This document shows, in pieces, positions 15,570 to 58,752 of a DNA stretch of 64,000 bases. The translations under genes and the position numbers were made by a program. Within the stretch, counting starts at the first letter, position 1; each line of letters opens with the position of its first letter. Under the pieces are notes generated by a model. That model saw nothing but the letters and a program-made list of their open reading frames with translations, ran no database searches and was not told the origin of the DNA. Source of the DNA: Alphaproteobacteria bacterium (GTDB taxonomy: Bacteria > Pseudomonadota > Alphaproteobacteria > UBA2966 > CAIVPW01); assembly GCA_947481575.1 (NCBI GenBank), contig CANKGV010000003.1, positions 51,934 through 115,933 of the forward strand, written 5' to 3'.

Positions 15570-15630
15570 GATACCTTGTTCCCCTCGCAGCAGCGAGCAG
15601 TACACTTCATCCTTGTGCGGAGGGATGTGA

Positions 15631-15894
15631 ATGGCCCCCGACGAACTCTCCGAACCTGTGCCCGCCGACATCCGCAAGCTTTCCTTCGAGAAGGCGCTGC
15701 AGGAGTTGGAGGATATTGTGCGCCGGCTCGAAAGCGGCGAGGTCAGCCTGGAAGAATCCATTGCCACGTACAGCCGCGGTATTCAGTTGAAGCGCCACTG
15801 CGAGGCGAAGCTGGAATCAGCCCGCCAGCAGGTCGAGCGCATCGAACTGAAGCCGGGCGGCGCACCCGCGTCCGAGCCGGCTGCCTTTGAATAG
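15631..15894 (+). CDS. xseB: exodeoxyribonuclease VII small subunit
   Basis: SFEKALQELEDIVRRLESGEVSLEESI signature, 87 aa. Confidence 0.85.
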   Translation: MAPDELSEPVPADIRKLSFEKALQELEDIVRRLESGEVSLEESIATYSRGIQLKRHCEAKLESARQQVERIELKPGGAPASEPAAFE

Positions 15895-30642: not shown

Positions 30643-32552
30643 TGGCAGGTCACAACTTCCTTCTCAGTGCGTTCTTCTTTTTAGCCGCCGCGGTTGCGGT
30701 CGTGCCGTTTGCGCGGCGCGGCGGGCTCGGCTCCGTGCTGGGCTATCTGCTGGCCGGCGTGCTGATCGGGCCATTCGGACTACGCTTGGTTACCGAGCCT
30801 GCCGAGATTCTTGAGTTCGCGGAATTCGGCGTCGTGATGATGCTGTTCTTGGTCGGCTTGGAACTGGAGCCGGCCAAGTTGTGGCGCTTGCGCATGCCAA
30901 TTCTCGGAACCGGCGGGGCCCAGGTGTTGGCGACCACGCTGGCGGTGGCGGCCATCGCCATGGTGTTCGGTGAGCCGTGGCGCGCCGGCCTTGCGATGGG
31001 CATGGGCCTGGCGATGTCGTCCACGGCGATTGCGCTGCAACTCCTCAACGAGCGCAACGTCATGGGCACCACCGCCGGGCGCTCGGCGTTCTCGGTGCTT
31101 CTGTTCCAAGACATCTCGGTGATTCCGATCTTGGCGATTCTGCCGTTGCTGGCGCTCCCGGGCGCGGGCACGGCGGCGGCGGTCGATGACGGCAGCGGCA
31201 AGCCGGCGTGGCTGTCGGCGCTCATCGTGTTCGGGGTGGTGGCGGGGATCGTTGGCGCCGGCCGGTTCTTGATGCGGCCGCTGTTCCGGTTCATCGCCGG
31301 CTCCGGCATCCGCGAGATCTTTACCGCCACCGCGCTCCTGCTGGTTATCGGCACGGCGCTGCTGATGCAGCAGATCGGCCTGTCGCCCGCGTTGGGCACG
31401 TTCCTCGCGGGCGTCGTACTGGCGGACTCCGAATATAAGCTCGCCCTCGAATCCGACATCGAGCCGTTCAAAGCGTTGCTGCTCGGCTTGTTCTTCCTGT
31501 CGGTCGGGATGTCGGTGAATTTCGGCGTGCTGGCCGACCATCCGTTCTCGATCGTTGGCATGACGCTCGGCCTGATCGTGCTGAAGCTCGCCATCCTCAC
31601 GGTGCTGGCGCGCTTGTCCGGCATGCGTCTGGAGGAGAACCTGCTGTTCGGCTTCACCTTGGCCCAAGGCGGCGAGTTCGCGTTTGTGCTGTACCAGTTT
31701 GCGGTCGGGCAGGGTGCGCTCTCCGCCGCGCAGGCGGAGCCGCTGGTCGTGGTAGTGGCGCTAAGTATGGCGGCGACACCGCTGATGATGATTCTGCTGG
31801 AGCGGGTGGTGCAACCGCGGTTGCGCACTGCCGCCCCGGTCCGGGCGCCGGATACCGTTACATCCGACGGTCACCCGGTGATCATCATCGGCTACGGCCG
31901 CTTCGGGCAGATTGTCGGCCGGTTCCTCGCGGCCAACGGTGTGCGCACGGTCATCCTCGACAACGACCCCGAACACGTCGAGGTGTTGCGCAAGTTCGGT
32001 GCGCCGGTGTTTTACGGCGACGCCACGCGTCTCGATCTGCTCGAGGCTGCCGGCGGCGATCAGGCGCAGATGTTCATCGTCGCGATCGACGACCTCGACA
32101 AGTCGGTGGCCACCGTGGAAGCGATCGTCGGCCGGTTTCCCAAGGCCAAGGTCCTGGCGCGCGCCCGCAACCGCGAGCACGTGTACCGTCTGACCGAGGC
32201 GGGCGCGCACATCACCCGGCGCGAGACATTCGATTCCGCGCTCATTGTCGGACGCCAGGCGCTTGAGTTGCTTGGCGAACACCCCTATGCGGCACGGCGC
32301 CGGGCGCGCCTATTTGCCCGCCACGACGAGCAGGTCCTTAAGGAAGGCTACGCGATTCGCGACAATTTCGATTCGCTCGTTACGCTTTCGCGCCAGGCGC
32401 GCACGCAGCTCGAGGACCTGTTCCGTCAGGACCGCGCACCGGCGGAGCGCACGGACCGCGACGGTGGGTTCGGCGATCACGATCAGGTTGGAGAGGGTTC
32501 ACCCGCGCCGCCGGCCGACCAACCCATCCAACCCGGGCGAGGGGGCCCATAA
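30642..32552 (+). CDS. kefC: glutathione-regulated potassium-efflux system protein (KefB/KefC, CPA2 antiporter + TrkA-N)
   Basis: GTG start overlapping kefG stop; 12-13 TM segments; C-terminal Rossmann IIIGYGRFGQIVGRFL (KTN domain). Confidence 0.85.
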   Translation: MAGHNFLLSAFFFLAAAVAVVPFARRGGLGSVLGYLLAGVLIGPFGLRLVTEPAEILEFAEFGVVMMLFLVGLELEPAKLWRLRMPILGTGGAQVLATTLAVAAIAMVFGEPWRAGLAMGMGLAMSSTAIALQLLNERNVMGTTAGRSAFSVLLFQDISVIPILAILPLLALPGAGTAAAVDDGSGKPAWLSALIVFGVVAGIVGAGRFLMRPLFRFIAGSGIREIFTATALLLVIGTALLMQQIGLSPALGTFLAGVVLADSEYKLALESDIEPFKALLLGLFFLSVGMSVNFGVLADHPFSIVGMTLGLIVLKLAILTVLARLSGMRLEENLLFGFTLAQGGEFAFVLYQFAVGQGALSAAQAEPLVVVVALSMAATPLMMILLERVVQPRLRTAAPVRAPDTVTSDGHPVIIIGYGRFGQIVGRFLAANGVRTVILDNDPEHVEVLRKFGAPVFYGDATRLDLLEAAGGDQAQMFIVAIDDLDKSVATVEAIVGRFPKAKVLARARNREHVYRLTEAGAHITRRETFDSALIVGRQALELLGEHPYAARRRARLFARHDEQVLKEGYAIRDNFDSLVTLSRQARTQLEDLFRQDRAPAERTDRDGGFGDHDQVGEGSPAPPADQPIQPGRGGP

Positions 32553-32652
32553 ACCGCGGGTGGATGGCCAGCGCGTCTCTGTGACCTGCGGTAGCGATGC
32601 GGAGACGTGTGGTCCCTGAGGCGAAGGGCCAAGATCAAGCGTGTGCCTCGGC

Positions 32653-33816
32653 CTAGTTCGTCCTGCTGACGCAGTGCGCCCCGGTCTGAGAGGGAAATCG
32701 TGATGCCAGTACTGGGCACAACGCCGCCGCGACGAAGGCCGCAACGGCGGTGGCGCCGTCGTTGTTGAAATGCATCGAGTCGTAGAAATAGAGCGTCGTC
32801 TTTGGCATCAGTCGCGCAAGATCGATGACCGACACATTCAGGGTTGCTGCGACATCGCGGGTGACGTCGTTGTAGGAGTCTAACAGGCGCCACTGCGTGT
32901 GACCGTCGAGGACGGAACCCCAAAGGTCCAGCCGCACTCGCGACAGGTCGACGCCGGTCCGAGGATCGACAGCGTCGCCCAACAGAAATGGTTGGGTGAT
33001 CAACACCGGCAGGATTCCGGCTGCGACACTTTCCCGCACCAGATTCTCCAGTCGTGCTCGATAGCCGTCGCGAAACGCGGCGTGTGCGGCGATGAGGGTG
33101 GTGGCGGTCGCGTCCGGCGTTTCCGTGGTAGCGGGCGCGAAACTGCCCGGGTCTCGCGGCACATGGAATTCGCCCTGTGCCAGGCCCCATCGCACGGTAT
33201 GCCAGTACCGGTAGAGATTGAGGCCCAGCGCGCCGATCTCAGTGTGTTGCGCAAGAGCGAGAAGGAACCCTCTCGGGCTGCTCCACGCGGATGCAGGATT
33301 AAGCCGGTCGTCATCGCCCTTCTGGTTGCTGAGTCCCACGTCGTTGGCGCCGACCAGGAACAGGACCACGTTGGGCTGCATTGGCGCGACGGCTTGGTGG
33401 AGAAGCACCGTGTGGCCGAACGAGGAATGTCCGTCGAGGCCGGCGTTCTCGACCCATAGCCGCGGGAAGTTTGGCACGAGGTTTCCAGCCAGCAGTGCTG
33501 GCCAATCCTTGCCGTCGGAAAGGTAGAAGCACTCGGTGGTACTGCCGCCGATCGCAACCACAGTGAGATGGTTCGCCCAATCGGGCGGCGGCATCGGCCC
33601 GCGAAACCCTATTGCGTTCTTGGTATGGACTATTTCGGAGTCGAGGCCATTTCCGGTGGCTCCGTTGAACGCATACCGCATGGTTGCGGGCAATACGATG
33701 CTGTTGCCGCGCAGCCGGAAACCAAAGGGATGGTAAACGTGTAAAAAGCCCTCGATGGCGAGAAGAGCCAGGAGGGTCGCGGCCAAGAGGACCAGAATGT
33801 TAGAAGTTGGGCGCAA
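32653..33816 (-). CDS. membrane-anchored SGNH/GDSL-family hydrolase (putative glycan O-acyl esterase/transferase)
   Basis: N-terminal TM anchor ILVLLAATLLALLAI; block I VVAIGGSTTE and block V DSMHFNNDG motifs. Confidence 0.5.
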   Translation of the reverse strand: MRPTSNILVLLAATLLALLAIEGFLHVYHPFGFRLRGNSIVLPATMRYAFNGATGNGLDSEIVHTKNAIGFRGPMPPPDWANHLTVVAIGGSTTECFYLSDGKDWPALLAGNLVPNFPRLWVENAGLDGHSSFGHTVLLHQAVAPMQPNVVLFLVGANDVGLSNQKGDDDRLNPASAWSSPRGFLLALAQHTEIGALGLNLYRYWHTVRWGLAQGEFHVPRDPGSFAPATTETPDATATTLIAAHAAFRDGYRARLENLVRESVAAGILPVLITQPFLLGDAVDPRTGVDLSRVRLDLWGSVLDGHTQWRLLDSYNDVTRDVAATLNVSVIDLARLMPKTTLYFYDSMHFNNDGATAVAAFVAAALCPVLASRFPSQTGAHCVSRTN

Positions 33817-33825
33817 AGAGCAGCC

Positions 33826-35100
33826 TCATGCCTTAGCGTCCGGAGTTCGAAGTGCCGCCTTGACCGTTCGAGGTACAACGGCGGGTAGATGGGAAATGGC
33901 AGATTTCCATGCGCGCGACGCGCCCATGGCCGCTAGGAAGATCAGCGCCGGGTAAGTGGGAGCGCGGTACCGCCAGTCAAAGTCGAGCAGCGTGAGCGCG
34001 TGGTAAAGGGCGGTGGCGACGATCCACGCGATACTCGCGAACCCCGCCGCAGCGGCGAACCGGCTGTTGCCGCGCAAGGTCGTGGCGGCGCCTACGACAG
34101 CGAGCAAATACAACGGTACGTGGGCGGCGACGTTCATCAGGCGATGCGCGGGACTGTAACCGTCGGCGAGGAACCAGAAGAAGTAACCGGCGCGGGCCAA
34201 GACGACGCGCGTATAGCCCGCGATCGAGGCGTTAGGTCGCAGGTAGGTCTCCGGACGTTGGAACACGACGGCGCCACTCCCAACCTCCGCGCCATAGGCT
34301 GTGGCTACGTCGCGTAGTGCGCCCGGGGGAAGCATCTGCGGATTCCACAACAAGGCGATGCCAGCGGCGAGGCCCACGGCCACTAGGACCATGCCAAGCG
34401 CACAAATCCAAGTGTATCGGAGTCGGGCAGCCCCTTCGGTGGGCGCGTTGTATGCCCAGGCGCCGACTGCCACGGCGGCCACTGCCAGCGCTACGGGCGG
34501 CCATGCTGGCCGGCACAGTGCGGCGGCCGCTAACATGACCGCCGTCCCGCTCCACGCGGCGGTGCGCGTCGGTGTTGGACCCTCACGGCAGCCCCAAAGG
34601 GCCAGCAATACAGCGGCCGTACTGAGCAGGATGAAGAGCGGGTCCGATTGGGTCATGGCGACCCACTGATAGAAATCGAACAGCGACATTAGGAAAGCAA
34701 CGGCCACCCAAAGCGCGAGTGTGCCAGCTTGAGCCTGCCCAAGCATGAGCAACACCAATGCCCCGGTTGCGGCGTAGGCGACCGCGTTCAGAACTACCAA
34801 CGCCTGGGGCCAATGTGGCCCAAACCCTGCCTCGGCCGCGGCGAAGACGTAGATATAGGTGAGGTAGAACTGAACGAGGACGGTATGCGAGGTGCCCGGC
34901 ATTCCGCCGAGCCCATCCGCCGTGTTGCGTGCATCCAACAGGTAGCGCAGTGGACTGTAGTGAAGCGTTGCCAAGGCCTGCGCCATGCTTCGATAGGCCA
35001 ATGAATCTGGAGTGACGATCGGGCCGAACCAGAACCCAAACGCCAGATAGGCCACGCCGAGGCCAAGCCCCACCCCTAAGGCTATCGCGGTCGTCTTCAT
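33826..35100 (-). CDS. polytopic GT-C-like membrane protein (ArnT/PMT_2-like glycosyltransferase or polymerase)
   Basis: ATG 35100 (MKTTAIALGVG); >10 predicted TM helices, no soluble domain. Confidence 0.5.
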   Translation of the reverse strand: MKTTAIALGVGLGLGVAYLAFGFWFGPIVTPDSLAYRSMAQALATLHYSPLRYLLDARNTADGLGGMPGTSHTVLVQFYLTYIYVFAAAEAGFGPHWPQALVVLNAVAYAATGALVLLMLGQAQAGTLALWVAVAFLMSLFDFYQWVAMTQSDPLFILLSTAAVLLALWGCREGPTPTRTAAWSGTAVMLAAAALCRPAWPPVALAVAAVAVGAWAYNAPTEGAARLRYTWICALGMVLVAVGLAAGIALLWNPQMLPPGALRDVATAYGAEVGSGAVVFQRPETYLRPNASIAGYTRVVLARAGYFFWFLADGYSPAHRLMNVAAHVPLYLLAVVGAATTLRGNSRFAAAAGFASIAWIVATALYHALTLLDFDWRYRAPTYPALIFLAAMGASRAWKSAISHLPAVVPRTVKAALRTPDAKA

Positions 35101-35119
35101 AGGCCCTAGTCGCATTTCG

Positions 35120-37018
35120 CTAATGTTGAAGGTGCGGAGCGGCATCGGCGGTCACGGCTCTAGGACCCACCATCCACCGGTCCAGGCTCAGCCAAGCGAA
35201 CAGGACGCCGCGATGGTCGGCTCGCCCCTCGCGGTGCTCTGACCACAGGCGCGCTAGGTGGCCTGCGTCCAGTCCCGCTTCTTCGGCGCGCCCCAAATCG
35301 GGGATGGGCCACTGGCGCAGCCACGCCGCAATCGGGATGCCGAAGCCCTTCTTCGGCCGGCGCAAGACGTCCGGTGGGAGCAACCCCTCGACCGCCCGCC
35401 GGAAGATCCACTTGCGCTCGCCATGCCGGTGCTTGGCGCGATACGGCAGGCGCATACAGAACTCGGCAACAGCGGTATCCAACAACGGGCACCGCACTTC
35501 GAGGGATGTCAGCATGCTGGCCCGATCGACCTTCGCAAGGATGTCGCCGGTCAAGTAGAACCGCGCGTAAAACTCCAACAAGCGGTCGCGCGGGTCGTCG
35601 CTCGCGCAACTGTTCCACAGTGCGATCACGTCGTCGTATACGGCGTCGGCGGCGACCGGAGATCGGCAGATCGCCGACACTTGGTCCAGGTCGGCGGGCG
35701 CCATCCACTGGGCCGCCCACACGGGTGGCGGGTAGGAGACGCCGCGGAGTGCGCGCCGCAGCTTGAAGTCCAAGCTGAGGTTCGAGTCACGCCGGGGCAG
35801 CCACTCGACGGCTCGCCGAAGCGCCCGGTGCAGGGCACGGGGAACCGCAGCGTAATAGAGGCGCGCCGGGGTCATCGCGGTGAAGGTGTCGTATCCGGCA
35901 AACATCTCGTCACCGCCATCGCCGGAAAGCGCCACCGTGACCTGGGTGCGGGCGAATCGCGACAGCAGGTGGGTCGGCAATAGCGACGGGTCGGACACCG
36001 GTTCGTCGATCGATTCGAGCAACGTGCCCAACAGTCCGCGGGAAGCATCCAGACTCAGGCGTTGATGGTGATGCCGTACGCCGAGCGCCGCGGCGGTCGC
36101 CCGCGCCGCATCCACTTCGTCATAACTTGGATCCTCGAACCCGACCGTGAACGCCTGGGCGGTGCCGGCGCCGCGAAGCTGGCAGGCCAGGGCCAACACT
36201 GCCGCCGAATCGATACCGCCGCTCAGGAAGAATCCCAGTGGAACGTCCGCTTCCAGGCGGCGCTCGACCCCGGCGCGCAAAAGGCGCTGCAGCTCCTCGA
36301 TCCAGTCCGCAGCGCTGCCGGAAAGCGGCTGCGCGGCGATGCGGTAGCGCCAATACGGGCGCACTTCCAGACTGCCGGTGGCCACGTCGTACAAGGCGAG
36401 GTCGCCGGCCTCGAGCTTGCTGGCGCCGGCGATCAGCGTACGGGGCGCCGGCACATACCCGAGGGCGAAGAACCGGACCAACGCGTCGCGGTCGAGGTGG
36501 CCGGCCACAGACGGGTGGCGCCGCAGCGCCGTCAGCTCAGACGCGAAAACGATGCCGCGCGCATGGACCGCGTAGTAGAGCGGCTTCTTACCGAATCGGT
36601 CGCGCGCAAACAGGATGCGGTGCCTGTGGCGGTCGTACAGCGCGAACGCGAACATGCCGTCCAAGCGCGGCACCATGCCCTCACCCCACTGGGCGTAGGC
36701 GTGGAGCAGCACCTCGGTGTCGGAGTGGTCGGACCGAAATACAGCGCCCTGCGCGGCAAGCTCGGTCCGCAAGGCTCGGTGGTTGTAGATTTCGCCGTTG
36801 AACACGACGACGAAACGGCCCGCCGAATCCGCCATCGGTTGCGCGCCGCCGACGCTATCCAGAATCGTCAGGCGGCGGAACCCGAGTCCGACCGGCCGGG
36901 CGGACTCAGGCTCAAACCACGCACCCTCGGCGTCGGGTCCGCGATGGACCAGTGCCGCGCACATCGCGGCAAGATCCCCGCGGGTGCCGGGGCCGGCGAA
37001 ACCCGCAATGCCGCACAT
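35120..37018 (-). CDS. asnB: asparagine synthetase (glutamine-hydrolysing) family amidotransferase
   Basis: N-terminal Ntn MCGIAG; synthetase SGGIDSAAV PP-loop. Confidence 0.85.
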   Translation of the reverse strand: MCGIAGFAGPGTRGDLAAMCAALVHRGPDAEGAWFEPESARPVGLGFRRLTILDSVGGAQPMADSAGRFVVVFNGEIYNHRALRTELAAQGAVFRSDHSDTEVLLHAYAQWGEGMVPRLDGMFAFALYDRHRHRILFARDRFGKKPLYYAVHARGIVFASELTALRRHPSVAGHLDRDALVRFFALGYVPAPRTLIAGASKLEAGDLALYDVATGSLEVRPYWRYRIAAQPLSGSAADWIEELQRLLRAGVERRLEADVPLGFFLSGGIDSAAVLALACQLRGAGTAQAFTVGFEDPSYDEVDAARATAAALGVRHHHQRLSLDASRGLLGTLLESIDEPVSDPSLLPTHLLSRFARTQVTVALSGDGGDEMFAGYDTFTAMTPARLYYAAVPRALHRALRRAVEWLPRRDSNLSLDFKLRRALRGVSYPPPVWAAQWMAPADLDQVSAICRSPVAADAVYDDVIALWNSCASDDPRDRLLEFYARFYLTGDILAKVDRASMLTSLEVRCPLLDTAVAEFCMRLPYRAKHRHGERKWIFRRAVEGLLPPDVLRRPKKGFGIPIAAWLRQWPIPDLGRAEEAGLDAGHLARLWSEHREGRADHRGVLFAWLSLDRWMVGPRAVTADAAPHLQH

Positions 37019-38082
37019 CAGTCGTCGGTCGCAGCGTTTCGGATTTCGCGCACCGAATAGGGCCTCTTGTCCTGACTCTCGTGGTAGGTCCGCATCAGCA
37101 TTTCGGCCAGGAGTCCGGACAGAATGCAGACGATGCCGAGCACCATCAGCATTACGACCAGCAATGGCAGCGGCGTGGTGATGAACGGGACGCCGCTAAA
37201 CAGCTTGAGCCAGATTGCCCACAACCCCGCGGCAAGGCCGCCGGCAATGGACGCAAGCCCGAGGCCGCCAAACAGATGCATGGGGCGGTTTGCTGCGCGT
37301 TCCAAGAACAGCACCAGCATCAGGTCGACGATTACGGCGCTCGTCCGGCTGAAGCCGTACTTGGACTTGCCGGTGGTGCGGGGGCGATGGTTGACCGCCA
37401 ATTGCGCGACGCGGGCGCCTTGCCAACTCGCGAAGATGGGGATGAAGCGATGCATCTCGCCGTACAGGCGGATACCTTCGAGCGCCGAGCGGCGGTACAC
37501 CTTTAGTGTGCAGCCGTAGTCGTTGAGCCGCACGCCGGTGAAGGCGGAGATGATCCGGTTGGCAATCTGGCTGACCAACACACGCGACGCGCCATCGCGG
37601 CGCGTGCGGCGCCATCCGGAAACGACGTCGTATCCTTCGTTCAGCTTGGCGAGCAACGCCTGGATATCGGCCGGGTCATTTTGGCCATCGCCGTCCAGCG
37701 TGATGATCAGGTCGCCGAGGGAAAGGTCGAAGCCGGCCATCAGAGCGGCGGTCTGACCGTAGTTGCGGGCAAACCGAACGGGCCGCACGCGGCGATCTAT
37801 GGCGGCGATCGCTGTGAGCTGGTCCCACGTGGCGTCGGTACTGCCGTCGTCAATGAGCAGGATTTCATAGCGGTAGGGCAGGCCGGCCAGCGTCGCCGTC
37901 AGTTCACGAACCAGCGGCGTCACCGATTCAGCTTCGTTGAAGACCGGCACTACGATCGAAAGGTCGGGCGGTGCTGCTACTGTGGTTGGGCGTTCGGGCA
38001 CGCCGGGCTCGCCTACTGCGTGCATCTGTTTGTGCGCCAACCGTCGCATTCCACGCTCACCGAACCTATCCCGGTATCCCAC
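37018..38082 (-). CDS. family-2 glycosyltransferase, polyprenyl-phosphate sugar synthase type (DPM1/ArnC/GtrB-like) with C-terminal TM helices
   Basis: LSIVVPVFNE...LLIDDGSTD...ITLDGDGQND motifs plus two C-terminal TM helices; stop overlaps asnB ATG (TGATG). Confidence 0.8.
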   Translation of the reverse strand: MGYRDRFGERGMRRLAHKQMHAVGEPGVPERPTTVAAPPDLSIVVPVFNEAESVTPLVRELTATLAGLPYRYEILLIDDGSTDATWDQLTAIAAIDRRVRPVRFARNYGQTAALMAGFDLSLGDLIITLDGDGQNDPADIQALLAKLNEGYDVVSGWRRTRRDGASRVLVSQIANRIISAFTGVRLNDYGCTLKVYRRSALEGIRLYGEMHRFIPIFASWQGARVAQLAVNHRPRTTGKSKYGFSRTSAVIVDLMLVLFLERAANRPMHLFGGLGLASIAGGLAAGLWAIWLKLFSGVPFITTPLPLLVVMLMVLGIVCILSGLLAEMLMRTYHESQDKRPYSVREIRNAATDD

Positions 38083-39196
38083 ACAGCCGCAGATATTGCG
38101 CGGCCACGGCCCGCCAGCCGAAGTCCTGCTCCATTCGCCGACGCGCGGCCGCCCCGAGCTGTGCGGCGGTGTTTGGGTTGGTCATCAGGCGGGTCACGGC
38201 CTGGGCCAAGGCGCCAGCGTCATCCACCGGCACTAGAATGCCGCATTCGCCGTTAGAAATCACCTCGCGGATCGACGGAATGTCGCTGGCCACCACGGCG
38301 AGTCCGCTCGCCATCGCCTCGAGCAGCGCGTTGGGTACGCCTTCATGGCGCGATGGGAACACAAAGATGTCGGCGGCGCGGTACAGGTCGGGGAGCGCGG
38401 CGCGCTCGACCCACCCGCGCATCCGCACCCACTCCGCGCACCCTAGCTGCTCGGCGTGACGTGCGATTCGCTCGCGGTCGGGGCCGTCGCCAACCAGTTC
38501 GAGTTCCCACGTCCCGGGTACGCGCGACAGACCTGTCAGCAGAACGTCCAGGCCCTTCTGTTCGGTGACCAGGCGCCCGACGAACAGTACCCGGGTCACC
38601 TCGCCGGGGGCCTTGGGCGGCACGGCGGGAGCGAACACGGTGGTATCGACCCCATTCGGCACCGCCGCGATTTCGAGCCCCGGCGCATATGCGCGCGCTA
38701 GCGTGCGAAGCCCAGACCCGTTGGCGATGATCACGGCGGCACGGCGCCACACCATGCGCAGGAGAAACCCGGATACCTGGTGGGCCCGGCGGAGTTGTTG
38801 CGGCAGGAAACCGGGAACGTCGCCGCCGCGCAAGGAGACGGCGTAGGGAATGCGGAACAACGCATAGAGAAGCCATGCGATCGGGCCCGACGGGAGCCCG
38901 AAGAAGGCGACAACGCGATCGGGCCGGTTGCGAAGCGCGATGAGAATAGCGGCGGGCGCGGCCATAGCCATGAAGCCGATCATCTCCGCGATGGTGGCAC
39001 GGTCACGCCGCCGGCGCCCCGACCACACGCGCCGGACATTCATCCCGGCCGTGAATTCGCTGTGCCGCAACCCGCGGTGCCACGCCGTCAGAACGGTCAC
39101 GTCGTGGCCCAGTTCAACCATCGCACGGCCGATCTCGAAGCTAGCCGTCGCGGCGCCTCCGCCCAGCGGAGGAAACTCGTAGTTGATCAGGAGCAG
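38066..39196 (-). CDS. family-4 glycosyltransferase; true start unresolved (first ATG at 39121 lies downstream of conserved N-terminal motif; CTG 39196 given as nominal start)
   Basis: In-frame upstream codons encode LLLINYEFPPLGGGAATASFEIGRA, the canonical GT4 Gly-rich N-terminus; C-terminal EGVPNALLEAMASGLAVVASD motif. Confidence 0.65.
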   Translation of the reverse strand: MLLINYEFPPLGGGAATASFEIGRAMVELGHDVTVLTAWHRGLRHSEFTAGMNVRRVWSGRRRRDRATIAEMIGFMAMAAPAAILIALRNRPDRVVAFFGLPSGPIAWLLYALFRIPYAVSLRGGDVPGFLPQQLRRAHQVSGFLLRMVWRRAAVIIANGSGLRTLARAYAPGLEIAAVPNGVDTTVFAPAVPPKAPGEVTRVLFVGRLVTEQKGLDVLLTGLSRVPGTWELELVGDGPDRERIARHAEQLGCAEWVRMRGWVERAALPDLYRAADIFVFPSRHEGVPNALLEAMASGLAVVASDIPSIREVISNGECGILVPVDDAGALAQAVTRLMTNPNTAAQLGAAARRRMEQDFGWRAVAAQYLRLCGIPG

Positions 39197-39274
39197 GCGC
39201 GTGGCAAAGCCTTGAGTCGACAGGGGTTCCGTGGCATTGCCTTCGGGCAGGGCGGATGGAGCCGTGCGACAAGT

Positions 39275-40234
39275 ATGCCACAGAATGTACGGGGATCTGC
39301 CTTGGCCTTCGCGCCCGCGGTTGCTACGGAGACGGTGCCGTGTCCGCTGTGCGCGAGCCTAGCATTCGAAATCCTGTTCTCGGCTGGGGACTATGAGTAC
39401 GGCCTTCCCGGAGAGTTCTTCGTTTCCCGGTGCCGGCAATGTGGCCTGATGGTGCAAAACCCACGGCCAGCGTTCTCCGAGATTCTGCGGTACTACACCG
39501 AGGCCTACGAGCCGCATCACAGTCCCGGAACCGCTCTTGTGCGCCGCCTGCGCCATCGCGTGCTGGTGCAACCCAAGCTGCGGCTTATCCGGTCGTTGGT
39601 GGGGGACACGGGTGATGTCATCGACATCGGTTGCGGGAGCGGTGCGTTGCTGGCGGATCTCGCCCAATTCGGACACTGGCGGCTGATGGGCGTTGAGCCC
39701 AACCGCGAAGCCGCCGCGTCGGCGCGTGGGCGCGGCCTTACGATCGCGGCGACGGTTGTCGAGGAGGCCCAGGTTGCTGCGCAGTCGCAGGACGTCGCCA
39801 TCATGAACCACGTCCTGGAACATCTGCCCGATCCCCGCCAAACGGTGGCTCATGTGCAGACGCTCCTGCGCCCCGGTGGTCATTTCATCGGCGAGGTCCC
39901 GAGCCCGCAATGCGTGGAGCGCGTGCTGTTCGGCCGGTACTGGGGCGGGTACCATTTGCCGCGGCACCTGACGTTCTTTTCGCGAGACCAGCTCACGCGG
40001 TTTCTGGCCCAAGCTGGATTCCGTGAGATCAGGGTCCGCCGGGTCATTCAGCCCTCGTCGTGGCTGACCAGTGCGTCAAACTACTTCCGTTCCCGCAACA
40101 GCGCGGCCGCCAGATTCGTGAGTCCACACGGCTTCATCTTGCTTGCGGCCGGGGTACTGCCGGCGCTCGCGCTCAAGGTCCTCGGCAGCGCTCCGATCTT
40201 GGCCTTTTCTTGCCGCAAGCCGAGTTGCCGGTGA
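39275..40234 (+). CDS. class I SAM-dependent methyltransferase with N-terminal zinc ribbon (alt GTG start 39332)
   Basis: CPLC...CRQC ribbon then VIDIGCGSGAL motif I. Confidence 0.65.
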   Translation: MPQNVRGSALAFAPAVATETVPCPLCASLAFEILFSAGDYEYGLPGEFFVSRCRQCGLMVQNPRPAFSEILRYYTEAYEPHHSPGTALVRRLRHRVLVQPKLRLIRSLVGDTGDVIDIGCGSGALLADLAQFGHWRLMGVEPNREAAASARGRGLTIAATVVEEAQVAAQSQDVAIMNHVLEHLPDPRQTVAHVQTLLRPGGHFIGEVPSPQCVERVLFGRYWGGYHLPRHLTFFSRDQLTRFLAQAGFREIRVRRVIQPSSWLTSASNYFRSRNSAAARFVSPHGFILLAAGVLPALALKVLGSAPILAFSCRKPSCR

Positions 40235-41172
40235 GCGCCGTCCACCAGGTTCGCGGTCTGCGGCGGCAACTGCGTCCGCTGCTAGTCGGCCTCGAGCCGT
40301 GCGACAACTGGCGGGCCGCGCTGGAGATCGGTGGAATCGTCGCTGCACTGATCGCGATTGAAGTTGCAGCCTTCGCTGCGGAGCGCACCGGGTACTGGGG
40401 CCTGTTCGTGCCGCTGGCGCTCGCGGTTGCTGTCGTTCAGGTGCGGATGGCGATCCTTCACCACGAGGCGGTGCATCGCCTGCTGTTCAGTAACCCCGCA
40501 CTGAACGATATCGTGGGGCTTCGCATCATCGGAGCGTCAATCGGCGCGCTGCCCAAATACTCGCGCCGGTCGCACCTCAGCCACCACGCCTACCTGGGCG
40601 ACCCCTGGGACCTGGAACGGGCAAACTACGACCCGCCGGCGAGCGCCCCGGCGTTCGTTCTGTGGCTAGCCCGCAAGGCGCTCGGCATTGAACCGCTGCA
40701 ACGGCTGGTCCGGCTGCTCCGGCACCGGCCCGCCGCCGCCGCCGGGCCGCCGCCGCCGCACAGTTCCGATTGGATCAACTTGGCGGTGATGCAGACGGCG
40801 ATTCTCGGGGGGCTGGCAGCGCTCGGTAGCGCCGAGCACTACCTGATCCTTTGGATCGCGCCGCTCATGACAGTGAGCCGCGCGCTCATGGGCGTGCGTG
40901 CTCTGGCGGAACACCTTCCGTTCCCCGGGCCGGAGGGGACGCGGTACCTGACGACGTTTGATGCTGGGCCGGTTGAGCGCCTGCTGCTTGCACCGCTGGG
41001 ATTTCAGTACCACGCGGAACATCATCTATTGCCGTCGATTCCGTCGTGGCGGCTATGGCGCGCCGCTGCGGCGATTCGTTCCCACGCGGAGTTTCCGCGC
41101 CTGGCGCGGCGCCGCGCCGGTTACGGCGCAGCCCTCCGGGAGTTCTATCGGGCCGGAGGCGCCGGTGTTTGA
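40231..41172 (+). CDS. membrane fatty-acid-desaturase-family di-iron oxygenase (desaturase/hydroxylase)
   Basis: GTGA overlap start; three His boxes HHEAVH, HLSHHAY, HAEHH. Confidence 0.7.
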   Translation: MSAVHQVRGLRRQLRPLLVGLEPCDNWRAALEIGGIVAALIAIEVAAFAAERTGYWGLFVPLALAVAVVQVRMAILHHEAVHRLLFSNPALNDIVGLRIIGASIGALPKYSRRSHLSHHAYLGDPWDLERANYDPPASAPAFVLWLARKALGIEPLQRLVRLLRHRPAAAAGPPPPHSSDWINLAVMQTAILGGLAALGSAEHYLILWIAPLMTVSRALMGVRALAEHLPFPGPEGTRYLTTFDAGPVERLLLAPLGFQYHAEHHLLPSIPSWRLWRAAAAIRSHAEFPRLARRRAGYGAALREFYRAGGAGV

Positions 41173-41869
41173 TTACGGTGACGTGTGGGTCGACGACTGG
41201 AGCGACATGCGGCAGTTCGGTCCCTCGGCGCGTCATCTGCGCAATATCGTCCTAGCGCTGCTTCGTGATCTGCAGTTTGCCACGGTCCTCGACGTTGGGT
41301 GTGGCGAAGGCTCGCTGCTGAACGATCTATACGGCGTGCAGCCGGCGCTGCTGCCGTTCGGAGTTGATCTCTCCGAGAGCGCCCTCGCCCGGGCGCGCCA
41401 GCGGGTGCCTGGCGGCGAGTTTGCGTCGCTCGATGTTGCCAGCGCGCGCTTGCAACGCCAGTTCGATCTGGTCGTCTGCACCGATGTGGTTGAGCACATC
41501 CCGGACGACCGCGCTGCGCTCGGCAACCTTGCCGGGATGACCGGGCGGTATCTCCTGGTCAGCAGTCTCCAAGGGCGCATGCGTGGGTTCGAAGCGACGG
41601 TCGGGCACGTGCGCAACTACAAGCTAGGCGAACTCGCAGCCAAGATCGAAGAGACGGGTCTTCGGGTGGTGCGGGTTGTCCAATGGGGGTTCCCGTTCTT
41701 CAGTCCGCTGTACCGGAACCTATTGGATGGGGTCGGGGGGCGCGGCACGACCGGGCAGTACGGACGGTTCCGCCGCCTGATTGCCGGGGCCCTCTATCAG
41801 TTGTTCCGCCTGAACACGTGGACACGCGGCGACGTGATCGTTGTTCTCGCGGAGCGCCCCCACGCATGA
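41165..41869 (+). CDS. class I SAM-dependent methyltransferase (alt ATG 41207)
   Basis: GTG overlapping desaturase stop; VLDVGCGEGSL motif I, DLVVCTDVVEHIPD motif. Confidence 0.65.
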   Translation: MFDYGDVWVDDWSDMRQFGPSARHLRNIVLALLRDLQFATVLDVGCGEGSLLNDLYGVQPALLPFGVDLSESALARARQRVPGGEFASLDVASARLQRQFDLVVCTDVVEHIPDDRAALGNLAGMTGRYLLVSSLQGRMRGFEATVGHVRNYKLGELAAKIEETGLRVVRVVQWGFPFFSPLYRNLLDGVGGRGTTGQYGRFRRLIAGALYQLFRLNTWTRGDVIVVLAERPHA

Positions 41870-42765
41870 AGCCGAGCGCTGCGGTCGTGCTGGGACGGCC
41901 CGAGTTGCGGTACTTGGACGACGTTATCGTGGAAAGCCTGCGGCGCGAGGGATTCTGTGGGCCCGTGTCGCGTCGCGATGCGCATGCGTTGGCGCACGAT
42001 GTTCTGTCCGACCAACGCATCGATGAGCAACTCGAGCTGCTGTCGCGGTCTACGCCGCTGCAGGGCCGGCGCATCCTTGAAGTGGGGAGCGGCTGGGGCG
42101 GACTGGTCGTGCGGGGCCGGGTCGCGTACGGACTGGAGATATTCGGGCTTGAGCCGTCGCGTGCCGAGTTCTCGTCCGCGTGGACAGTAAGCCGGGCGCT
42201 CCTGCAGGCGTTCAGCGTGCCGGACCACGTCATCGTCAACGGGCGCGGCGAGGCGATGCCGTTCGCCGACGCGAGCTTCGACGTCGTCTACTCCACCAAT
42301 GTTCTGGAGCATGTCGACGACCCCATCGCAGTCCTCAACGAGTCGCTGCGGGTGTTGCGGCCCGGTGGGGTGCTGCAAATGGTGGTGCCGAACTACGGTT
42401 CGTGGTGGGAGGGGCATTACGGCGTGTTCTGGCTGCCCCATCTCACGCCGGCGCTCGCGCGCATCTACGTACGGCTGCTGGGGCGGGATCCGAGCTATCT
42501 GCGGGGGTTGCGGTTCATCTCGCTCGGCACCCTCCGGCGTTGGGCGCGCACCAAGGCGGACACCGCGGTTGTACTGGGCTGGGGCGAAGACGTATTCGCC
42601 GAGCGGCTCCGCACCATCGAATTTCAGCCCTGGGCGGCACTGGGGAAGGTGCGCACCGCGGCGCACTGGTTGCGGCGCGCGGGGCTGACCGATGCGTTCA
42701 TTGCGATGAGCCGCTGGTTCGGCTGGGTCACGCCGATTGTTCTTACCTTGCGTAAGCGCGGCTGA
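41866..42765 (+). CDS. class I SAM-dependent methyltransferase (Methyltransf_11-like)
   Basis: ATGA overlap; ILEVGSGWGG motif I, FDVVYSTNVLEHVDDP, LRPGGVL. Confidence 0.65.
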   Translation: MKPSAAVVLGRPELRYLDDVIVESLRREGFCGPVSRRDAHALAHDVLSDQRIDEQLELLSRSTPLQGRRILEVGSGWGGLVVRGRVAYGLEIFGLEPSRAEFSSAWTVSRALLQAFSVPDHVIVNGRGEAMPFADASFDVVYSTNVLEHVDDPIAVLNESLRVLRPGGVLQMVVPNYGSWWEGHYGVFWLPHLTPALARIYVRLLGRDPSYLRGLRFISLGTLRRWARTKADTAVVLGWGEDVFAERLRTIEFQPWAALGKVRTAAHWLRRAGLTDAFIAMSRWFGWVTPIVLTLRKRG

Positions 42766-44219
42766 TGGGGCGCGGGCTGCCGGCCACGGCGATCCTGCTG
42801 CTGGCGGCGGGCGCGGCAATTCGGATCGCCGGCGCAGTGCTTTGGCCGACCGGCGGTGGCGATACCGCAATCTACATGACGGTTGCTGAGAACATTGCCC
42901 AACACGGATGCGTATCCGTGTCGCCGCCAGCGAGCGGCGCGTGCGTACCCCACTGGGGCGGGAATCAGCTGCCCCTGTACCCGGCCTTTCTGGCCGTGTG
43001 GCTGGTTGGCGGCGGCCTCTCGAGCACAACCATCGGGCTCGCCCAGGCGGTGCTGGAACTGCTGGCGATCGCGCGTCTTGGACAGGCGGTCGCCGACTTG
43101 GCGGGCCGCAAGGCCGGATGGCTGACGGTGGCCGTACTCGCAATCGCTCCGACGGAGTGGTTCTGGTCGCGGTACGTGCTGACCGAGTCGCTATCCATCG
43201 CCGCGCACCTGTGGCTGTGGGCCGAGCTTCTGCTGTGTTTGGCGCAGGCCCGGCCTCGCGCATTGCCTGTTGCCGTGGCGCTGGCGGTCAATGTCGGCTT
43301 GCGCCTCGATGCCGCATTCCTAGTTGCACCGGTGGTGGCGACCTTTTTCATGGTGGCGCCGCCGCGCGCGGCGCTACGCGGGCTGGTCGTTGCGGCGATG
43401 ATTGCCGGCGCCCCATTTTTGGCTTGGACGGTTCGCAGCCATCTTGCCGGGTTGCCGTGGTCGCCGATCGCCGCCCTCAGCAATCAAGACCGGAGCGCGG
43501 CGCCGGCTGGATACTTTGCGTGGCTGCGGACCTGGCAGGTCAATCAATACGACCTGCCCACGAACTCGTGGCCGGTTCTTACGCAGGAGTACTCCCGGGT
43601 TGTTTTGACGCCACGGGCCGTCGCTGGCGCGACGCCGGGCGAGGCCCGCGACCTTGCGCAGTTGTTCGCGGAACTGGCGAACCACGACCACGAGGCGTTT
43701 CCGCCGGAGATTGACGCCGCATTGGGGAAGCTGGCCGCGGACATGCGCGCGCGGGAGCCGATACGGCATTGGGTGCTGCTGCCCCTGGCGCGCGCAGGAT
43801 GGGCTTGGTTCAACCCATTCACGTCGTATGCGTGGCCGCAATTCGAGCGCGCGGGGCGTACCAGTGTCGACTACGTAACGATGAACTGGCGGTCGTTTCT
43901 CGACGAGCCGTCCTTCTTGGTGGCGCGAGTTGTTCCGAATGCCTGGCGCATCGCCGCGCTGCTGACGCTCGTGATTGCGCCCTTGTTCTGGCGCCGGCTC
44001 GGCGTAGATGCGCGCCGCGTCTACTGGCTGACCCTGCTCTACCTGGTTTTGCGCACGGCGGCGTTTGCGATGATTGCGGGGGTTGAGACCCGCTACATCG
44101 TCGAAACGGTCCCGCTCCTGGAATGCCTGGCGGTGCTAGTAGCGACGAGCCTGTGGCCCGCGCTCCGGCAGCATGCCCCGGCGCAGGCGTCCGGGCCTGT
44201 TGCGAGGCCCGGACGTTAG
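42765..44219 (+). CDS. ArnT/PMT_2-like GT-C family membrane glycosyltransferase
   Basis: TGATG overlap; ~12 TM helices; N-terminal loop with YMTVAENIAQHG; GT-C-like architecture. Confidence 0.55.
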   Translation: MGRGLPATAILLLAAGAAIRIAGAVLWPTGGGDTAIYMTVAENIAQHGCVSVSPPASGACVPHWGGNQLPLYPAFLAVWLVGGGLSSTTIGLAQAVLELLAIARLGQAVADLAGRKAGWLTVAVLAIAPTEWFWSRYVLTESLSIAAHLWLWAELLLCLAQARPRALPVAVALAVNVGLRLDAAFLVAPVVATFFMVAPPRAALRGLVVAAMIAGAPFLAWTVRSHLAGLPWSPIAALSNQDRSAAPAGYFAWLRTWQVNQYDLPTNSWPVLTQEYSRVVLTPRAVAGATPGEARDLAQLFAELANHDHEAFPPEIDAALGKLAADMRAREPIRHWVLLPLARAGWAWFNPFTSYAWPQFERAGRTSVDYVTMNWRSFLDEPSFLVARVVPNAWRIAALLTLVIAPLFWRRLGVDARRVYWLTLLYLVLRTAAFAMIAGVETRYIVETVPLLECLAVLVATSLWPALRQHAPAQASGPVARPGR

Positions 44220-44235
44220 TGCCGCGGTTGCGGGC

Positions 44236-44850
44236 TTAGAACTGGTAGAGCGCCCCCACCTTGAGCGCCCAGCCGTTGTAGCGATGGCTGCCGGCGCCGT
44301 CTTGGTGGACCATGTTCATCTCGCGTTCAACAATGCCGCGCAGGCCGATGCGCGTCGCGATCAAGATTTGGGCACCGATGCCGAGGTGCGCGCCCCTGCT
44401 CGTACCGGTGCTGGTGTCGGTGTTGTTGCCATCGGTAACCGACAGATTCAGGCGCGAACGCGAGACCCCGATCAGGCCGACAAGTTCGAGCCCGGGACGG
44501 CCTAGCGGTGCGTAGCCCATGAAATCGAAGGTCAGCCGGTCGCGCACATCAACGGTCGAGGTGATGCCGCTCGCCGAGTCGGTCCGGCTCGTCGAGCCGG
44601 ATGTGCCATAGCCGAGTTCGAGGCCGATGGTCGGGGTTACCCTGGCGCCGACAAAGACCGACTGCCCGCGCAGGCTGTTCTCTGGGCCACCCGTGGTCGT
44701 GTTAAGGCCTTCGATCGTCGGGTAGTGCCCTTTGTCGGAAGTGCCTTCGACGCCGGCATACGGACGGTAGTTGTAGGTCTGGGCGGTAGCGGCGCCGATG
44801 CCGGTGAGGCCAAATACAAGCGCACAGACGGTGACACGCAAACGATTCAT
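44236..44850 (-). CDS. outer-membrane beta-barrel protein (OmpW/OmpA-like small porin)
   Basis: ATG 44850 with signal peptide MNRLRVTVCALVFGLTGIGAATAQ; alternating beta-strand pattern; C-terminal ...ALKVGALYQF. Confidence 0.5.
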   Translation of the reverse strand: MNRLRVTVCALVFGLTGIGAATAQTYNYRPYAGVEGTSDKGHYPTIEGLNTTTGGPENSLRGQSVFVGARVTPTIGLELGYGTSGSTSRTDSASGITSTVDVRDRLTFDFMGYAPLGRPGLELVGLIGVSRSRLNLSVTDGNNTDTSTGTSRGAHLGIGAQILIATRIGLRGIVEREMNMVHQDGAGSHRYNGWALKVGALYQF

Positions 44851-45057
44851 GACGACTCCTACTGAATACGGGTACCCCGTACGCATAGGGCTCACACCGG
44901 CGTCACTGCGCGTGTGCGAAACGGCACATGCGTGGCTGGTTTGGCCGGGGGGCGCGCCCCAGGCGGACTGCGAGTGGAAGAGTAGGTGGAACGAGGGAAA
45001 TTTGGCTGCCCGACCGGGCCGGCGTCCGAACCGTTGACGCCTAGGCCCTTGGGCTGC

Positions 45058-45134
45058 TGGTCGGGGAGAGAGGATTCGAACCTCCGGCCCCCACGTCCCG
45101 AACGTGGTGCTCTACCAGGCTGAGCTACTCCCCG
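45058..45134 (-). tRNA. tRNA-Pro (anticodon CGG)
   Basis: 77-nt cloverleaf: acceptor CGGGGAG/CTCCCCG, D-arm GCTCAGCCTGGTAGAGC, anticodon loop TTCGGGA, T-arm GGTTCGAATCC, discriminator A, encoded CCA. Confidence 0.8.
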
Positions 45135-45194
45135 AAGCAGCCGCCTTATAGCCGCAAGCAGTCGGGACCCGCAAGGCGGAGCGCACGGCTCCGG

Positions 45195-58720: not shown

Positions 58721-58752
58721 TCCCCGCCACCGGACGCGCTCACCAGCTTCCC

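Follow-up and report, generated by a model that had tools for sequence, protein, structure and literature searches.

A divergent alphaproteobacterial locus that may deliver an amidated, lipid-carried sugar to an envelope glycan

What is made by a gene cluster that places a polyprenyl-phosphate sugar synthase and an AsnB-type amidotransferase beside two membrane proteins for which Pfam has no model? The question is raised by two divergent operons on contig CANKGV010000003.1 of an alphaproteobacterial assembly (GCA_947481575.1), of which a stretch of 64,000 nucleotides, hereafter the window, was analyzed. The minus-strand operon encodes, in order, a GT4-family glycosyltransferase (GT4), an ArnC-like GT2-family glycosyltransferase (GT2), the amidotransferase (AsnB), the membrane protein MP439 and an SGNH hydrolase; the plus-strand operon (39275/39302–44219) encodes the methyltransferase MT1, a di-iron oxygenase, the methyltransferases MT2 and MT3 and the membrane protein GTC484. 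Together the ten genes, five on each strand, span 11,567 bp (32653–44219), in agreement with the ~11.5-kb combined locus that an earlier note, made from the raw sequence, had delimited. Every gene call of that note was borne out: open reading frame (ORF), Pfam and NCBIfam analysis confirmed the five minus-strand genes, their order and their identities, and fold and profile work established the GT-C nature of the membrane enzyme. We consider it rather probable that the locus is an accessory system for the modification of an envelope glycan, of the three-component type, in which an amidated acidic sugar is loaded onto a lipid carrier and attached outside the cytoplasm by two GT-C enzymes. Lipid-carrier-mediated periplasmic glycosylation, which the note had read from the same genes, is supported by the alignment of GT2 with ArnC, by two GT-C folds and by the conserved co-occurrence of the genes.

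The donor synthase, the amidotransferase and the two GT-C proteins

Three-component periplasmic glycosylation employs, in sequence, a polyprenyl-phosphate sugar synthase, a flippase and a GT-C transferase (PMC11127046). GT2 (37018–38049, minus strand, 343 residues; Glycos_transf_2, E 5.7e-31) is a synthase of the GtrB/ArnC/DPM1 type with anchoring C-terminal helices, and a GT-C enzyme is encoded with it. Compared with solved structures, it scores 189 bits against ArnC (residues 29–337), 113 against GtrB and 56 against DPMS; a DGD motif lies at 119, and hydrophobic segments at 263–321 form the C-terminal membrane hairpin. Because the alignment with the ArnC structure runs from end to end and includes this hairpin, the proposed DPM1/ArnC-type GT2 with C-terminal transmembrane (TM) helices stands. 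Orthology to ArnC was considered and rejected: the NCBIfam ArnC model (NF007986) gives 199.9 bits over 8–311 of its 316 positions, against an equivalog cut-off of 529, and the locus offers no ArnA, ArnB, ArnD or ArnT context. The NCBIfam score against PgfS is 152 bits.

AsnB (35120–37018, minus strand, 632 residues; Asn_synthase 4.7e-80, GATase_7 1.4e-44) is a glutamine-dependent amidotransferase with an intact Cys2 nucleophile (MCG) and an intact PP-loop (SGGIDS, 266). It passes TIGR01536 (439 bits, cut-off 267); identification as an XrtA/PEP-CTERM amidotransferase was rejected, since TIGR03108 scores 473.7 bits against a cut-off of 816.9. Its nearest solved relative, the hydroxyamidotransferase 7ylz (188 bits), acts on a carboxylate other than that of aspartate. 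Orthologs of AsnB that adjoin GT2 or GT-C orthologs are 46–59% identical to it. A single base belongs to both the GT2 stop and the asnB start (GAC TGATG TGC), the same one-base stop/start overlap recurs in the metagenome locus L080, and in L079 the junction reads TAATG, with the upstream GT2 ORF cut by the contig end; judged from these junctions, AsnB is translationally coupled to GT2. The tight packing ascribed to the minus-strand operon holds for its remaining junctions as well, which are gaps of 9–16 nt or short overlaps, and the plus-strand genes overlap successively by 4, 8, 4 and 1 nt, the last of these overlaps, between MT3 and GTC484, being of the GT2/asnB type. Amidation of a uronic acid, suggested earlier as the role of AsnB, draws indirect support from a TviB/WbpO-like 6-dehydrogenase gene beside the GT2–AsnB pair in two sibling loci, L080 and L092; the window has no such gene. 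The literature yielded nothing specific on a system combining AsnB, a polyprenyl-phosphate carrier and GT-C enzymes, or on Azospirillum uronamides.

The two membrane proteins, MP439 (33826–35145, minus strand; 439 residues, or 424 from an alternative start called in L001) and GTC484 (42765–44219, plus strand; 484 residues), match no Pfam or NCBIfam model as they stand in the window. Pfam applied to the window proteins could not have made the two GT-C calls, which were verified by structure prediction with fold search and by profile–profile comparison. A word-indexed homology search returned three proteins with MP439 alone and four with a 62-sequence alignment, because low-complexity membrane words saturate its candidate list; an exhaustive HMMER profile search was needed, and it found 516 family representatives at 50% identity. 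In the 62-member alignment D47, H334, D388, R392 and R394 are invariant, and 4 of the 62 members give weak PMT_2/PMT matches. The AlphaFold2 model built from this alignment (pLDDT 91, pTM 0.91) has a compact GT-C fold, a multi-helix membrane core with the helices of the first extracytoplasmic loop following TM1 (helix 15–40), and places D47 just after TM1 at the start of that loop, where a GT-C enzyme carries its acidic residue. The family profile found no significant match among Protein Data Bank (PDB) sequences, fold comparison alone being effective, and MP439 falls outside the curated GT-C sequence families (Pfam PMT, PMT_2 etc.). MP439 is a minimal GT-C protein like ALG3/9/12 and PimE. Differences in fold score between ArnT, AglB and ALG12 do not exceed noise, so fold similarity does not separate the types of acceptor.

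GTC484 looks distantly PMT_2/ArnT-like. Nine relatives were retrieved besides its own cluster, three of which (P0006, P0007 and P0009) carry PF13231; GTC484 itself does not match PF13231 at E <= 0.01. Its family profile matches the O-mannosyltransferase TMEM260 (E 6e-4), the only significant match among PDB sequences. With the AlphaFold2 model of GTC484 (pLDDT 84.5), the best Foldseek matches are ArnT (5f15, E 1.4e-4), STT3, AglB, Pmt, Emb and AftB, and the top 39 all have the GT-C fold. Profile–profile alignment of the two families by hhalign gives a probability of 96.7% (E 4.5e-10, 349 columns) and pairs D47 of MP439 (in PD) with D33 of GTC484 (in GD, of a GDT motif), along with a C-terminal (W)RY(R) motif; on the strength of these aligned profiles, the two families are homologous. 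Two membrane-protein families without a Pfam model are thereby placed in the GT-C superfamily.

Recurrence in metagenomes and in Azospirillum

The linkage of the two operons had been set beforehand as the test on which their treatment as one locus depended. Metagenome contigs were scanned with the GTC484 family and then searched by tblastn with all window proteins. Orthologs from the minus-strand operon (GT4, GT2, AsnB, MP439, SGNH) and the plus-strand operon (MT2, GTC484) turned out to be mixed in single loci and even in single operons; because relatives mix the genes of both operons instead of carrying them separately, we conclude that the two operons belong together. AsnB (39–59% identity) occurs together with the closest GTC484 homologs (36–39% over the best segment) in L076–L081, L092 and L093. 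GT2 (50–57%) accompanies them in seven of these eight loci, the eighth (L076, 2.7 kb) being too short to show it, and an MT2-like methyltransferase is close by in several. In L079, L080, L081, L091 and L095 an MT2-like domain is fused to a second GT2 domain (494–536 residues); the fusion lies downstream of the GT2–AsnB pair in L079 and L080 and upstream of it in L081, and the pair is absent from L091 and L095.

The layouts vary around this theme. L092 is a colinear operon of 6-dehydrogenase, GT2, AsnB and GT-C; in L080 a TviB-like UDP-GlcNAc 6-dehydrogenase (458 bits) and an epimerase are divergent from GT2, AsnB and the methyltransferase–GT2 fusion, which converge on the GT-C gene; and on the contig of P0008 a GT2–AsnB pair is divergent from a GT-C–methyltransferase pair. 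Homologs of MP439 and GTC484 occur together in L013, L016, L087, L093 and L109, of which L087 has a divergent layout like that of the window and an SGNH protein 46% identical to the one studied here. On the contig of P0002 the MP439 homolog adjoins AsnB and a 478-residue GT-C protein of the PMT_2 type. Most sibling loci contain an LPG_synthase_TM gene, and Fcl, GMD, ManC and TviB-like genes neighbor the conserved core.

Elsewhere the partners of MP439 homologs are a GMC oxidoreductase together with a DegT aminotransferase, or different GT2 genes. An MP439-type GT-C accompanied by a GMC-family flavin adenine dinucleotide-dependent oxidoreductase of ~520–545 residues was seen in L013, L015, L016, L093 and the contig of P0002; most loci with the oxidoreductase also have the aminotransferase and some a GNAT or MBOAT gene, and the same oxidoreductase and aminotransferase lie beside a GTC484-type GT-C on the contig of P0008. 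To judge by gene content, such loci are possibly a separate recurrent module for the oxidation and transamination of a lipid-linked sugar. The GT2–AsnB–GT-C cluster of L081 encodes, at 14572–15747, a protein with a transglutaminase core and TPR repeats that belongs to the superfamily of WbmE, a periplasmic uronamide deamidase of Bordetella (PMC2615507).

The arrangement extends to cultured bacteria. In four cultured Azospirillum strains the GT2 and AsnB orthologs are 2–4 kb apart. On plasmid AZO_p6 of A. lipoferum 4B, one strand encodes in turn GT4 (47%), a methyltransferase, the MT2 ortholog (61%; AZOLI_RS30135), an LPG_synthase_TM protein (RS30140) and the GT2 ortholog (52%; RS30145). Convergent with this run lie the genes for AsnB (53%; RS30155) and a 659-residue polytopic membrane protein, so that GT4 and GT2, from the minus-strand operon of the window, are colinear with MT2 from the plus-strand operon. 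A. oryzae and A. ramasamyi share this layout, which in the latter is broken up by the insertion of a DUF6492 gene and an IS200/TnpB element, and Azospirillum sp. TSH100 has a reduced form, in which the LPG_synthase_TM and GT2 genes converge on AsnB and the membrane protein. The module adjoins rfbF/rfbG in A. oryzae and TSH100. Searches of the plasmid collection by tblastn with GTC484, MP439 and the oxygenase gave no match. The polytopic protein of Azospirillum (AZOLI_RS30150 at 12873–14852 of L113, with orthologs in L114–L116; 635–659 residues) is encoded in translational coupling with AsnB. The protein combines ~11 hydrophobic segments with a soluble domain at its C-terminus, and the motif YWDDWGY follows TM1. 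It gave no hhalign signal against either GT-C profile, alone or as a four-sequence alignment (effective sequence number 1.2), and matched nothing in Pfam or PDB; it may be another undescribed GT-C family. What these loci conserve is a core of ArnC-type synthase, AsnB, MT2-type methyltransferase and polytopic (GT-C) membrane protein, to which an LPG_synthase_TM protein is usually added.

Accessory genes and genomic setting

Around this core the window has further genes. The SGNH/GDSL-family hydrolase (32653–33816, minus strand, 387 residues; Lipase_GDSL_2, PF13472, 8.8e-14, 52.8 bits against a cut-off of 32.9) shows the blocks of the SGNH superfamily (GGSTT at 90 with S92, GLDG at 126, GAND at 156 and DSMH at 346) and begins with a hydrophobic segment (1–28), an N-terminal membrane anchor that puts the catalytic domain, by prediction, in the periplasm. 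An AlgX/AlgJ-type O-acetyltransferase was rejected as its identity: PF16822 gives 17.1 bits, below the cut-off of 26.5, and the locus has no MBOAT or Acyl_transf_3 gene. Such acyl translocator genes do occur in sibling loci; since no such partner is present here, a role as an esterase is at least as likely as one as an acyltransferase. SGNH homologs with 45–46% identity lie near MP439 homologs in L014 and L087, and the SGNH protein beside the MP439 homolog of L007 was set aside as not detectably orthologous.

On the plus strand, MT1 (39275/39302–40234; Methyltransf_23, 6.3e-26) is a class I S-adenosylmethionine (SAM)-dependent methyltransferase that starts at ATG 39275 or TTG 39302 (310 residues in the gene call from 39302) and has an N-terminal CxxC...CxxC zinc ribbon (CPLC at 14, CRQC at 44) and a C-terminal hydrophobic tail (272–304). 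The membrane di-iron oxygenase of the fatty-acid desaturase/hydroxylase superfamily (40231–41172, 313 residues; FA_desaturase, 3.3e-28) has its His boxes intact (HHEAVH at 77, HLSHH at 115, HAEHH at 261), and its best NCBIfam match, the guanitoxin L-arginine gamma-hydroxylase GntB, reaches 82 bits, far below the cut-off of 380. No oxygenase homolog was found in the related loci examined or in the plasmid collection, which argues that it is not part of the conserved mechanism. MT2 (41165–41869, 234 residues; Methyltransf_23/12/25, NodS-like, 1.7e-7) and MT3 (41866–42765, 299 residues; Methyltransf_11, 3.5e-17), both on the plus strand, are class I SAM-dependent methyltransferases too. MT2 is the best-conserved protein of the locus; MT3 has no clear ortholog in Azospirillum, where the second methyltransferase was rejected as a candidate on comparison.

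GT4, a GT-B glycosyltransferase (38066–39196/39202, minus strand; Pfam Glyco_trans_1_4 6e-40, Glyco_transf_4 8e-15), heads its operon with an unusual start. Its conserved N-terminus (RLLLINYEFPPLGGG) is encoded upstream of the sole canonical in-frame start, ATG 39121, and the 80 open codons upstream of this ATG contain no ATG, GTG or TTG; the DNA is identical in L001–L003. The Pfam domains begin at residue 13 of the translation from 39196, solved GT4 structures align from residues 8–9, and the Azospirillum ortholog (47–48% identity over its full length) begins MARLLLINYEFPPLGGG. Where Azospirillum reads ATG GCA CGG CTT, the window reads GCC ACG CGC CTG, with AAGG 7 nt upstream. From this comparison the ancestral start is probably now ACG (39202–39200), an ATG-to-ACG change through which GT4 may be weakly translated or inactive. 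A 16-codon ORF in a different frame (39187–39237, minus strand, from ATG 39237; MPRNPCRLKALPRACS) ends at the TGA within CTGATC of the GT4 N-terminal coding sequence, and TGATC resembles the TGATG coupling junctions of the locus; termination–reinitiation from this ORF into GT4 is conceivable on the nucleotide evidence. The GT4 of L081, tried as a counterpart, aligned in the C-terminal domain only. The choice of start also sets the distance between the two operons, given earlier as ~80–130 bp between 5' ends: with a GT4 start at ~39196–39202 it is 78–105 bp, whereas with ATG 39121 it is 153–180 bp, the MT1 start being taken in each case as ATG 39275 or TTG 39302.

The divergent intergenic region (39203–39274) and its edge contain two copies, 30 bp apart, of CGTGGCAWWGCCTT, a pattern written CGTGGCA(AA/TT)GCCTT, at 39200–39213 and 39230–39243; these are its sole matches in 64 kb, with 0.11 expected, for a pattern that was chosen post hoc. 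As a motif, it could be a regulator site, or a mere duplication of an AAGG-containing leader. A sigma-54-like reading of the TGGCA repeats was discarded by eye for wrong spacing. Scanning of 32300–45300 gave no sigma-70-like promoter, with 1.9 expected, and terminator-like sites at chance level.

The window is chromosomal (~66% GC), with housekeeping genes on both sides of the locus: cysNC, dxs and kefGB on one (kefB ends at 32552), and tRNA-Pro, ispB, sppA, glyQS, ppdK and pyrC on the other. The GlyS protein most resembles those of Alphaproteobacteria: it is 55% identical to that of Tistrella, 51% to Methylobacterium and 48% to Sinorhizobium, against 38% to Acinetobacter. The OMP_b-brl gene (44236–44895), for an 8-stranded outer-membrane protein, is convergent with GTC484 and lies 17 nt downstream of it; tRNA-Pro(CGG) (45058–45134, minus strand) is directly beyond the locus. 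The GC content at third codon positions (GC3) of the locus, 0.782, is 0.06 lower than that of the flanking housekeeping genes (0.842), and this compositional difference and the neighboring tRNA are consistent with an acquired accessory island; a search for integration scars beside tRNA-Pro found no convincing flanking direct repeats. The ten-gene arrangement, intergenic DNA included, is identical in three metagenome contigs from different samples (L001–L003) and is thus no assembly artefact; part of it is also present in the NCBI metagenome-assembled genome (MAG) GCA_947471125.1. Farther off, a second GT4 gene (58534–59784) lies immediately upstream of pyrC, near a gene for a 385-residue pentapeptide-repeat protein (54878–56035).

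A putative pathway, its rivals and its known relatives

We posit that the ArnC-like GT2 would move a sugar from its nucleotide onto undecaprenyl phosphate (Und-P) at the cytoplasmic face of the membrane. The sugar, made elsewhere in the genome, would most likely be a hexuronic or N-acetylhexosaminuronic acid, and AsnB would turn its carboxylate into a carboxamide at the expense of glutamine and ATP, before or after lipid loading. MT2 would tailor the donor further, as may MT1, MT3 and the di-iron oxygenase. A flippase encoded outside the locus would then turn the lipid-linked sugar over, and on the periplasmic side GTC484 and MP439 would attach it at one or two sites of an acceptor, most likely lipopolysaccharide (LPS; O-antigen, core or lipid A) or another glycan or glycolipid of the outer envelope. 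The membrane-anchored periplasmic SGNH protein could subsequently edit an O-acyl group; GT4, possibly poorly expressed, would have the acceptor or a precursor as its cytoplasmic substrate. Conversion of a (N-acetylhexosamin)uronic acid into a uronamide donor is the most economical choice because a 6-dehydrogenase lies beside GT2–AsnB in L080 and L092, an epimerase in L080 and a WbmE-family protein in L081; LPS or O-antigen is favored as the acceptor because rfb and other sugar-nucleotide genes adjoin the module.

Several observations weigh against this pathway. No flippase candidate of the GtrA, ArnE/F, MATE or LPG_synthase_TM type occurs in the locus or the 64-kb window, neither operon has room for an extra ORF, and the LPG_synthase_TM proteins of L080 and L081, used as tblastn queries, match nothing in the window. 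The same window holds no dehydrogenase that would form a uronic acid, so the identity of the sugar rests on the two sibling loci. No canonical start codon serves the conserved N-terminus of GT4. The gene set is a mosaic, the oxygenase, MT1 and MT3 lacking conserved partners in other loci, and in its complete ten-gene form it was seen only in contigs that are 100% identical. In Azospirillum sp. TSA2s, finally, the AsnB ortholog is ~50 kb from GT2, in a polysaccharide cluster without an adjacent GT2 or a recognizable GT-C, so that the link between the AsnB subfamily and lipid-linked donors is not a strict one.

A bolder version of the pathway, which we offer tentatively and hold to be rather doubtful, has AsnB act on membrane-bound Und-P-uronate. 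It would yield an undescribed class of donor, a polyprenyl-phosphate uronamide, possibly methylated, that two GT-C families described in neither Pfam nor CAZy would deliver to LPS.

Among the rivals, the one that survives best retains the machinery and changes the acceptor to the head group of a membrane lipid or glycolipid (lipid A, glycosyl-diacylglycerol, glycosphingolipid or aminolipid): the glycolipid would be a product of GT4, the lipid a substrate of the oxygenase and of the tail-anchored MT1, and the head group would be lengthened by MP439 on the periplasmic side. The minimal GT-C build of MP439 and the desaturase-type enzyme of the locus make this a serious alternative. The intact His boxes of that enzyme and the hydrophobic tail of MT1 speak for it, as does ArnT, the prototype partner of ArnC, which modifies lipid A. 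Sphingomonadales replace LPS with glycosphingolipids that carry uronic acids, and members of the MP439 family are numerous in MAGs of Allosphingosinicella and other Sphingomonadales. The oxygenase, however, accompanies no related locus, the conserved core adjoins genes for O-antigen and nucleotide sugars (rfbF/rfbG; Fcl, GMD, ManC, TviB-like), and the locus has no lipid-synthesis genes; we regard a lipid acceptor as unlikely.

The remaining rivals part with the pathway more fully. Conventional cytoplasmic assembly of a polysaccharide, with GT4 and GT2 building a repeat unit, the membrane proteins serving as Wzy polymerases or WaaL ligases and the operons sharing no donor, is improbable. O-antigen and exopolysaccharide clusters often contain GT4, GT2, AsnB and methyltransferases, the MP439 member P0060 is clustered with a WecA/MraY-type initiating transferase and GT4s, and the AsnB of TSA2s lies in a cluster without an adjacent ArnC-like GT2. 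Yet the locus contains no initiating phosphoglycosyltransferase, Wzx, Wzz, ABC transporter or export gene, GT2 is of the ArnC/GtrB type over its full length, membrane hairpin included, none of the top 39 Foldseek matches of GTC484 departs from the GT-C fold, and elsewhere the genes of both operons are interleaved in single operons. Protein O-glycosylation, in which PMT/TMEM260/PgfM-like GT-Cs would decorate periplasmic or outer-membrane proteins such as the adjacent OMP_b-brl, is suggested by TMEM260 as the only significant PDB sequence match of the GTC484 profile (E 6e-4), by the 152 bits of GT2 against PgfS of the streptococcal Pgf protein-glycosylation system and by the convergent outer-membrane protein gene 17 nt beyond GTC484; it is very improbable, given fold scores that do not tell ArnT from AglB or ALG12, no evident Ser/Thr-rich target, and sibling loci that sit among sugar-nucleotide genes for LPS and polysaccharides. 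Last, a decaying mosaic, acquired horizontally and without function in its host in part or as a whole, would fit the apparent loss of the GT4 start (ATG to ACG), the lack of a flippase and a sugar dehydrogenase in the window, the lower GC3 and the adjoining tRNA-Pro, but is the least credible reading, since none of the ten reading frames is broken, the catalytic motifs are conserved, the gene junctions are still tightly coupled and contigs from several samples show the identical sequence.

Returning to a three-component pathway with an amidated donor, its closest parallels include the accessory modules GtrA/GtrB/Gtr*, CsbB/GtcA/YfhO, GacI/GacL and the pentofuranose/GT136 system (PMC11127046), which like the window combine a polyprenyl-phosphate synthase with a GT-C and lie near glycan genes. 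Unlike them, the window has no flippase gene, its donor is apparently amidated and methylated by enzymes coupled to the synthase, and its GT-Cs have no Pfam models. The Arn/Pmr pathway differs in that ArnA, ArnB, ArnD and ArnE/F are absent here, in that it uses one GT-C where the window has two, and in its chemistry, which is that of an aminotransferase, a formyltransferase and a deformylase, in place of which the window has the AsnB amidotransferase. The window AsnB can be likened, by size and context, to WbpS, WbtH and WbmC, AsnB paralogs of ~620–650 residues in surface-glycan loci, and the 6-dehydrogenase and epimerase of L080 and the 6-dehydrogenase of L092 echo the WbpO/WbpP/WbpS route to N-acetylgalactosaminuronamide (PMC2615507). 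WbpS-type enzymes serve the assembly of repeat units in the cytoplasm, whereas the window AsnB is coupled to a polyprenyl-phosphate sugar synthase. In Rhizobium, the ArnC-like GT2 RgtE reportedly makes a polyprenyl-phosphate uronic acid, from which the GT-C paralogs RgtA/B/C/D/F are said to add galacturonic residues to LPS core and lipid A. In this outline the Rgt system resembles the window in being alphaproteobacterial and in joining one synthase and several GT-Cs with a uronic-acid donor, which in the window is a putative one; it is not known to have an associated amidotransferase or methyltransferases, and it adds negative charge, whereas the window system would neutralize charge.

Read as glycan modification of the three-component type, the locus is a variation on a known bacterial theme, in which the coupled amidotransferase and the two undescribed GT-C families are new. 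Periplasmic decoration of LPS and cell-wall polymers from lipid-phosphate sugars controls serotype, phage receptors and resistance to cationic peptides, and the donors known to us are neutral or cationic sugars; a donor synthase coupled to AsnB points to a uronamide donor, which would extend the chemistry of such systems. Cultured and genetically tractable hosts in which this could be tested exist in A. lipoferum 4B, A. oryzae and A. ramasamyi. If an Und-P-uronamide is indeed the donor, the module would be an alphaproteobacterial, amidation-based counterpart of the charge-neutralizing 4-amino-4-deoxy-L-arabinose (Ara4N) pathway.

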